From the NCBI RefSeq assembly GCF_003334255.1, contig NZ_QOWU01000103.1: 5,793 bases of DNA. One strand, given 5' to 3'. Positions 5,140 to 5,250 of this stretch are shown one piece after another. A program made the position numbers and the translations under genes. The DNA comes from Escherichia coli (GTDB lineage Bacteria; Pseudomonadota; Gammaproteobacteria; Enterobacterales; Enterobacteriaceae). Position 1 is the first letter of the stretch, and the number at the start of each line of letters is the position of its first letter. A model generated the notes under the pieces. That model saw only the letters and a list, made by a program, of their open reading frames with translations, ran no database searches and had not been told where the DNA came from.

Positions 5140-5250
5140 TGAAAAACAAACGCCCCTGAAATTCGTGCCGATCCGCCAAGACTGTCACGAAAATTCAAGG
5201 GGCGTGTGGGTCGTAACACACGGAGGAAATCCTAACACATGAGCGCCGTA
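5140..5250 (-). ncRNA. Candidate antisense RNA (ColE2 RNAI-like) complementary to the rep mRNA leader; coordinates approximate
   Basis: On the minus strand, an imperfect long hairpin (plus 5150-5163 pairing with 5192-5205) is followed by TTTGTTTTTCAG, a terminator-like 3' end near 5140. ColE2 replicons are known to regulate Rep with an antisense RNA of roughly 115 nt over this region. The 5' end and promoter were not identified. Confidence 0.4.

Follow-up and report, generated by a model that had tools for sequence, protein, structure and literature searches.

The region between positions 5140 and 5250 of a 5,793-nucleotide stretch of Escherichia coli DNA (contig NZ_QOWU01000103.1; hereafter the window, numbered from its first letter) very probably encodes the copy-number-control antisense RNA of a ColE2-type replicon (RNAI, the IncA incompatibility determinant), which represses Rep. 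The minus strand carries a long imperfect hairpin with the features of an intrinsic terminator, the surrounding leader is homologous to that of ColE2-P9, the hairpin stem covaries among related replicons, and the elements of a minus-strand promoter that points into the hairpin are conserved.

The rep leader belongs to a ColE2-type replicon

The C terminus of the window Rep matches the DNA-binding domain of ColE2-P9 Rep (PDB 3VW4; E = 2.6e-63), and the sequence flanking rep on its 3' side aligns with the origin of ColE2-P9 save for a 3-nt insertion. The domain match and the origin alignment together indicate that the replicon is ColE2-type, which places the hairpin in the 5' leader of a rep gene of this type. 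The rep ORF (309 aa) begins at 5239 and, passing over the circular junction, ends at 452, and homologous plasmids annotate it as a replication initiation protein. Bases 1 to 77 of the window are an exact repeat of 5717 to 5793, and these identical ends indicate that the window is a circular plasmid with a unit of 5716 bp that was read past its junction; rep spans that junction. The leader (5095 to 5262) is matched by 1,137 plasmid records, and the homologous plasmid records are typed as Col156 or as rep_cluster_2131/2150. CP043021.1 shows a 100% leader match, but its record is 5641 bp, and the two plasmids are therefore not identical throughout. In the homologous plasmid records that were inspected, no RNA gene is annotated at this place, which is suggestive only, as the plasmid table omits RNA features.

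Aligned with pColE2-P9 (NZ_KY348421.1), the rep leader is essentially identical over 5086 to 5134, the A-run/U-tract, the apical CCGCCAAGA, and the start region through the first ~50 nt of rep, establishing sequence homology to the ColE2-P9 leader. In addition, the covariance model described below matches the pColE2-P9 hairpin at 53.9 bits. Passages in two papers (PMC5304414, PMC6856555) state that ColE2 replicons produce a small antisense RNA, RNAI, that is complementary to the rep mRNA 5' UTR and blocks Rep expression posttranscriptionally, a statement for which Yasueda 1994, Takechi 1994, and Sugiyama & Itoh 1993 are cited there. According to the same passages, the literature that they cite has established for ColE2-P9 the RNAI transcript, its negative control of Rep and copy number, and its role in incompatibility. 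The original prediction had pointed out that the hairpin lies where ColE2-type replicons are expected to carry their copy-control antisense RNA, and this is supported by the 3VW4 match, the alignments of the origin and of the pColE2-P9 leader, the covariation, and the promoter.

The hairpin and its U-tract

The features of the leader and of the rest of the plasmid are collected in Table 1.

Table 1. Features of the window and leaders of distant ColE2-family replicons. Positions are those of the window, except for the distant leaders, which are listed under their sequence handles.
Feature	Position	Strand	Remark
Candidate rep promoter: TCGACA (5104-5109), 17 nt, TAGTGT (5127-5132)	5104-5132	plus	
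Predicted RNAI, ~76-81 nt: small 5' stem-loop and large terminator stem-loop	5141-5221	minus	
U-tract UUUGUUUUU of the RNAI intrinsic terminator	5142-5150	minus	Read straight off the sequence
Main imperfect stem-loop of RNAI	5150-5205	minus	56-bp imperfect inverted repeat; fold z = -4.29
Apical UCUUGGCGG (CCGCCAAGA on the mRNA strand), including the UUGGCG loop motif	5173-5181	minus	Presumed first-contact (kissing) site
Small 5' stem-loop of predicted RNAI, GUGUG-8 nt-CACAC	5204-5221	minus	Fold of predicted RNAI
rep translation initiation region: SD-like GGAGG (5222-5226), ATG (5239-5241)	5222-5241	plus	
Candidate RNAI promoter: -35 TTGAAG (5256-5251), 16-nt spacer, TGn (5237-5235), -10 TAGGAT (5234-5229)	5229-5256	minus	
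MobQ-type relaxase gene	1277-2362		
Cargo: LysE-family transporter	3157-3729	minus	
Cargo: 316-aa protein	3736-4686	minus	Weak CmoA-like (SAM-dependent) match only
Leaders of distant replicons	L135 313-434; L012 544-666; L136 306-427; L137 279-424; L134; L140		

Folding of the minus-strand RNA, which had been proposed as a check, singles out the hairpin. The 60 nt from 5207 to 5148 fold at -27.3 kcal/mol, compared with -14.85 +/- 2.9 kcal/mol in dinucleotide shuffles (z = -4.29), and none of 200 shuffles was as good; the predicted RNAI folds at -29.9 kcal/mol (z = -3.18). The wider span around 5140 to 5250 (131 nt) is unexceptional (z = -1.19), and the signal comes from the hairpin alone. Read on the plus strand, 5150 to 5205 is ACGCCCC TGAA ATTCGTG ..CCGCCAAGA.. 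CACGAA..TTCA GGGGCGT, and this complement of the minus-strand hairpin forms the stem-loop of the rep mRNA leader that RNAI would target. The U-tract, preceded by the GC-rich base of the stem, follows the hairpin directly on the minus strand only. It is kept in ColE2-P9-like leaders and persists, slightly altered, as far out as Aeromonas pAQ2-2.

Both the long imperfect hairpin and the U-rich tract after it on the minus strand (5150 to 5142), as described in the original prediction, were confirmed. The hairpin also lies upstream of rep as claimed, 34 to 89 nt from the ATG (5239); its supposed overlap with the ribosome-binding region does not stand, and the overlap with the start codon belongs to the antisense promoter rather than to the hairpin. 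Two other readings of the region were rejected. Sequence inspection of the plus strand found no U-run after the hairpin, which argues against a plus-strand attenuator, and a 56-aa ORF on the minus strand (5049 to 5219) was judged spurious, which leaves no coding role.

Antisense promoter and ends of the predicted RNA

The promoter of the antisense RNA, which had been left unplaced, can now be located in a candidate of the extended -10 type that overlaps the rep ATG. Its elements were compared in 21 replicons ranging from Escherichia to Edwardsiella and Aeromonas: TTG in the -35 element is found in all or nearly all, TGn in 21/21, and TAnnAT in 20/21, although this conservation may partly reflect translational or coding constraint, because the promoter overlaps the rep start. 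An extended -10 element makes a weak -35 element tolerable. A simple sigma-70 scan of 4700 to 5500 found no promoter, a negative result that is a threshold effect, as the candidate scores 8/12 and the threshold was 9.

The ends of the RNA were deduced from the promoter and the terminator, with the start placed 7 to 8 nt downstream of the -10 element (5221/5222). The predicted 5' end (5221) adjoins the SD-like GGAGG, and the candidate promoter and the intrinsic terminator would thus bound a small RNA within the rep 5' UTR. The same rule applied to a ColE2-P9-type leader (pO26-S4, identical to pColE2-P9) predicts 114 nt, and the RNAI of ColE2-P9 reportedly measures ~115 nt, a length attributed to Takechi and colleagues in 1994; the agreement serves as an independent check on the predicted ends. 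Most related replicons are also predicted to have a small 5' hairpin at the matching place, with differing sequences. In addition, a perfect hairpin of ~34 nt, CCGCGTTTCCCGATGGGAAAGCGCGG, is present in pColE2-P9 (~510 to 545), pO26-S4, and pEc631_4, and it is absent in most Col156 plasmids and in the window (5205 to 5222). The extra hairpin explains why the predicted RNAI is 114 nt long in ColE2-P9 and ~81 nt long in the window.

On the plus strand, the candidate rep promoter forms a block that is nearly invariant across replicons, and its TCGACA is also found in the distant replicons of ETEC p58 and Klebsiella pWSD411_9. The rep mRNA is predicted to start near 5139 to 5141, which would give a leader of ~100 nt.

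Conservation, covariation, and strand

The apical UCUUGGCGG/CCGCCAAGA is unchanged in 11/13 aligned ColE2-P9-like leaders, with pP7_1 and p2LS4 differing by one base (CCGGCAAGA), and the adjoining upper stem varies with compensation. The window leader and its relatives therefore combine a constant nine-nucleotide loop with a variable stem. A nine-nucleotide loop conserved among IncA types, with a variable stem, is said to have been described by Hiraga and colleagues in 1994.

An alignment of 17 hairpins with MAFFT and RNAalifold recovered 3 pairs only, as small indels at bulges shifted the two arms against each other. A covariance model was built from eight in-register sequences and a hand-written 15-pair structure, and 15 distinct replicons were realigned. 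In this alignment, which is fitted to the structural model, 96.4% of cells form a standard pair, compared with a shuffled mean of 77.7%. Nine of the 15 pairs are changed on both sides (compensatory), and none of 500 shuffles reaches any of the five measures used. When the 3' arm was slid by 1 to 3 columns as a control, 35 to 49% of cells paired (maximum, 48.6%). An exact 16-mer scan of genome contigs with GAAAAACAAACGCCCC returned nearly exclusively chance matches in unrelated MAGs, the only relevant one being Edwardsiella ictaluri.

Since the mRNA leader folds into the mirror hairpin (-25.5 kcal/mol), Watson-Crick covariation by itself does not identify the folding strand. The two strands differ in their noncanonical positions, the stem having 10 G.U pairs and 8 mismatches when read on the minus strand and 2 G.U pairs and 16 mismatches on the plus strand, a few of which are bulge register artefacts. 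In addition, the minus-strand hairpin is the stabler one in 16/17 replicons, by a mean of 3.4 kcal/mol. The G.U asymmetry and the stability favor a minus-strand RNA as the folded species.

Alternative explanations

The plus strand folds too, as noted above, the SD of rep is weak in relatives (GAGAGA or GGAAGGA), and translation of ColE2 Rep reportedly requires the leader, a result ascribed to Nagase and colleagues in 2007. These points would suit a hairpin that acts purely in cis, as a leader structure that allows efficient translation from a weak SD, with no separate antisense RNA. Such an explanation is very unlikely, however, as it sits poorly with a U-tract restricted to the minus strand, with the G.U pairs and stability that favor this strand, and with a conserved extended -10 promoter that points into the hairpin; moreover, passages in PMC5304414 and PMC6856555 describe the antisense RNA of ColE2-P9 as experimentally shown. 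A role in cis is also compatible with RNAI and may exist in addition to it rather than as an alternative. The GC-rich stem base and the minus-strand U-tract, together with another weak terminator-like site farther inside rep, would also be accounted for by a plain intrinsic terminator that stops stray minus-strand transcription from rep and shields the cer-like site and the cargo, with no regulation involved. This would leave unexplained the constant apical loop in a variable stem, the dedicated conserved promoter ~80 nt upstream, and the homology to a replicon with a proven regulatory RNA, and it is given even less credence than an action in cis.

Least credible is control of the IncB/I-complex type, in which the mRNA loop joins a distal site in an activating pseudoknot, which is coupled to leader-peptide translation and opposed by the antisense RNA. 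Distant ColE2-family leaders match the Rfam family PK-repBA (RF01089), with pEI2 at 47.9 bits exceeding the gathering score of 45, and a weak PK-repBA match was the only one returned by the Rfam search of the window, Rfam having no ColE2 RNAI family. The window match, however, reaches 19.1 bits against the gathering score of 45 (E = 0.96) and lies on the wrong (minus) strand; membership in PK-repBA was rejected, and the match was treated as a shared loop motif. Furthermore, the window has no leader ORF coupled to rep, as rep itself starts with the ATG at 5239, and a search of 5100 to 5320 found no distal UUGGCG-type complement to the mRNA loop CCGCCAAGA. For CopA-like RNA (RF00042) and ColE1 RNAI, there was no Rfam match in the window at E <= 1. 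A ColE2-type RNAI encoded on the minus strand remains the preferred explanation of the region.

Proposed mechanism and significance

From the arrangement of these elements, we infer the following course of RNAI action. Transcription would begin at a constitutive minus-strand promoter of the extended -10 type, lying over the rep start codon and directed toward the rep promoter, and would yield an RNA of ~80 nt (5221 to 5141), whose long imperfect hairpin would double as an intrinsic terminator. The complementarity of this RNA to the rep mRNA leader would be complete and cover the first ~80 nt of the leader. The RNAI loop UCUUGGCGG may contact the loop CCGCCAAGA of the leader hairpin first, and pairing would then extend into a duplex that ends at the edge of the weak SD (GGAGG, 5222 to 5226). 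Translation of Rep may be blocked sterically, by the loss of a structure in the leader on which initiation depends, or through cleavage. As the amount of RNAI would follow plasmid dosage, Rep synthesis, and hence initiation at the origin, would be curbed as the copy number rises. The UUGGCG loop motif carried by the predicted RNAI is the one named for ColIb-P9 in Asano et al. 1998.

The significance of these results lies mainly in correct annotation, in that the region very probably holds the copy-number and incompatibility determinant of the plasmid. The divergence of the window stem from that of ColE2-P9 presumably gives a different IncA specificity, and knowledge of the stem variant may help to predict which Col156/ColE2-type plasmids coexist. 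In addition, the placement of the candidate promoter provides concrete targets for the copy-number engineering of ColE2-based vectors. The understanding of the ColE2-type system itself is unchanged by the findings in the window.

Plasmid context

A cer-like XerCD multimer-resolution site (4917 to 5083) lies just upstream of the rep promoter, and its core, GGTACGTACAAGAGGAGTTATGGTAAAT (~5055 to 5082), was likened by eye to the ColE1 cer core. The presence of such a site fits a statement in PMC6856555 that MOBQ42 ColE2-like plasmids carry a cer-like site. Besides the relaxase gene, the plasmid contains a low-GC cargo block (approximately 2400 to 4800; ~31% GC) inside a backbone of ~50% GC. A 238-aa ORF in the cargo has no NCBIfam match. 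The pair formed by the LysE-family gene and the gene of the 316-aa protein recurs in the IncF plasmid pSX5G-122k, where it adjoins a Col156 leader and lies beside IS26.

A dead ColE2/Col156 remnant is present in pECSF1 (NC_013655.1, ~1393 to 2289) and in ~400 IncF conjugative plasmids. In this remnant, the cer-like site and the rep promoter are followed by a pP7_1-type hairpin that breaks off at the loop (…GATCCGGCAG) after its 5' half, and rep resumes directly from codon ~40. The deletion at this junction has removed the other arm of the hairpin (3'), the promoter of RNAI, and both the RBS and the start codon.

Distant ColE2-family replicons

Six more distant replicons, those of ETEC p58, Klebsiella pWSD411_9 and strain 165 'unnamed4', E. 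coli pC06114_4, Edwardsiella pEI2, and Aeromonas pAQ2-2, show 38 to 54% Rep identity where measured (pEI2 was not scored). They share with the window the hairpin base, the U-tract, and the TGn-TAnnAT promoter, and their apex is inverted, with UCUUGGCGG on the mRNA strand (UUUGGCG in pWSD411_9). The ATG of the conserved CACATG motif, which is the rep ATG of the window, opens a short leader ORF in these replicons; the end of this ORF overlaps or abuts the rep start, which is a TTG in four cases. The mRNA loop has a distal complement, CCGCCA(A), and the leader ORF and this complement are both present in p58, pEI2, pC06114_4, and pAQ2-2. Besides pEI2, which is above the PK-repBA gathering score, p58 (39.8 bits), pC06114_4 (38.8 bits), and pAQ2-2 (24.8 bits) give matches to this family that stay below that score. 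The features of the distant leaders and their PK-repBA matches point to a control module of the IncB/I-complex type attached to ColE2-type Rep genes.

The type represented by ColE2-P9 and the window looks like a simplified derivative of the module of the distant replicons, or the reverse. It is possible, if somewhat short of probable, that the ColE2-P9 clade, including the window, descends from an IncB/I-complex-like module (leader peptide, mRNA loop UUGGCGG, and distal CCGCCA partner) by inversion of the apex and loss of the leader peptide, with control now being direct and not pseudoknot dependent. If this is true, the UUGGCG loop moved from the target to the antisense RNA.

Comparison with known systems

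The closest counterpart of the predicted RNAI is that of ColE2-P9 and ColE3-CA38 (IncA), which occupies the same leader position in a homologous rep gene and has the same orientation. The U-tract and the apical nine-nucleotide loop are identical to those of ColE2-P9, and the same promoter elements lie over the rep start codon, with TAGGAT as the -10 element in the window and TACGAT in ColE2-P9. The window and ColE2-P9 also agree in the presumed rep promoter and in the type of origin. The two differ in the hairpin stem, whose sequence has diverged with compensation, and in the extra ~34-nt hairpin that ColE2-P9 has between the main hairpin and the SD and that the window lacks. In addition, the window has 3 nt more in its origin (AAC, 460 to 464) and 12 aa more in the C-terminal domain of Rep (NANSSENQAIKG, residues ~258 to 269). 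In ColE2-related plasmids, origin (IncB) specificity is said to be set by paired changes in the origin and Rep, as Hiraga and colleagues reportedly found in 1994, and the AAC and 12-aa insertions of the window are a paired change of this kind. Work on the RNAI (IncA) of ColE2-related plasmids comes from the Itoh laboratory (Sugiyama & Itoh 1993; Takechi et al. 1994; Yasueda et al. 1994; Hiraga et al. 1994).

The I-complex RNAs (RNAI of IncB pMU720 and Inc RNA of IncI-alpha ColIb-P9; RF01089) resemble the predicted RNAI in their single long imperfect hairpin, the UUGGCG/CGCCAA loop pair, the antisense RNA's complementarity with the rep leader, and regulation at the translational level. In these plasmids, however, UUGGCG is in the mRNA loop, and control depends on a leader peptide and on a distal pseudoknot partner; the window carries the loop on the other strand and lacks both the leader ORF and the distal partner. 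CopA/CopT of plasmid R1 (RF00042) likewise has a 5' hairpin and a major hairpin, starts pairing through CGCCAA/UUGGCG loop-loop contact, and inhibits Rep synthesis, but it acts by way of the tap leader peptide, is accompanied by the CopB repressor, and serves an unrelated Rep family. ColE1 RNAI/RNAII also relies on a small unstable antisense RNA to set the copy number of a small Col plasmid; its RNAI, however, blocks primer maturation and not translation, and ColE1 has no Rep. The window RNAI is thus the already known ColE2-type system, ordinary for its family, in a stem variant without the second hairpin of ColE2-P9.
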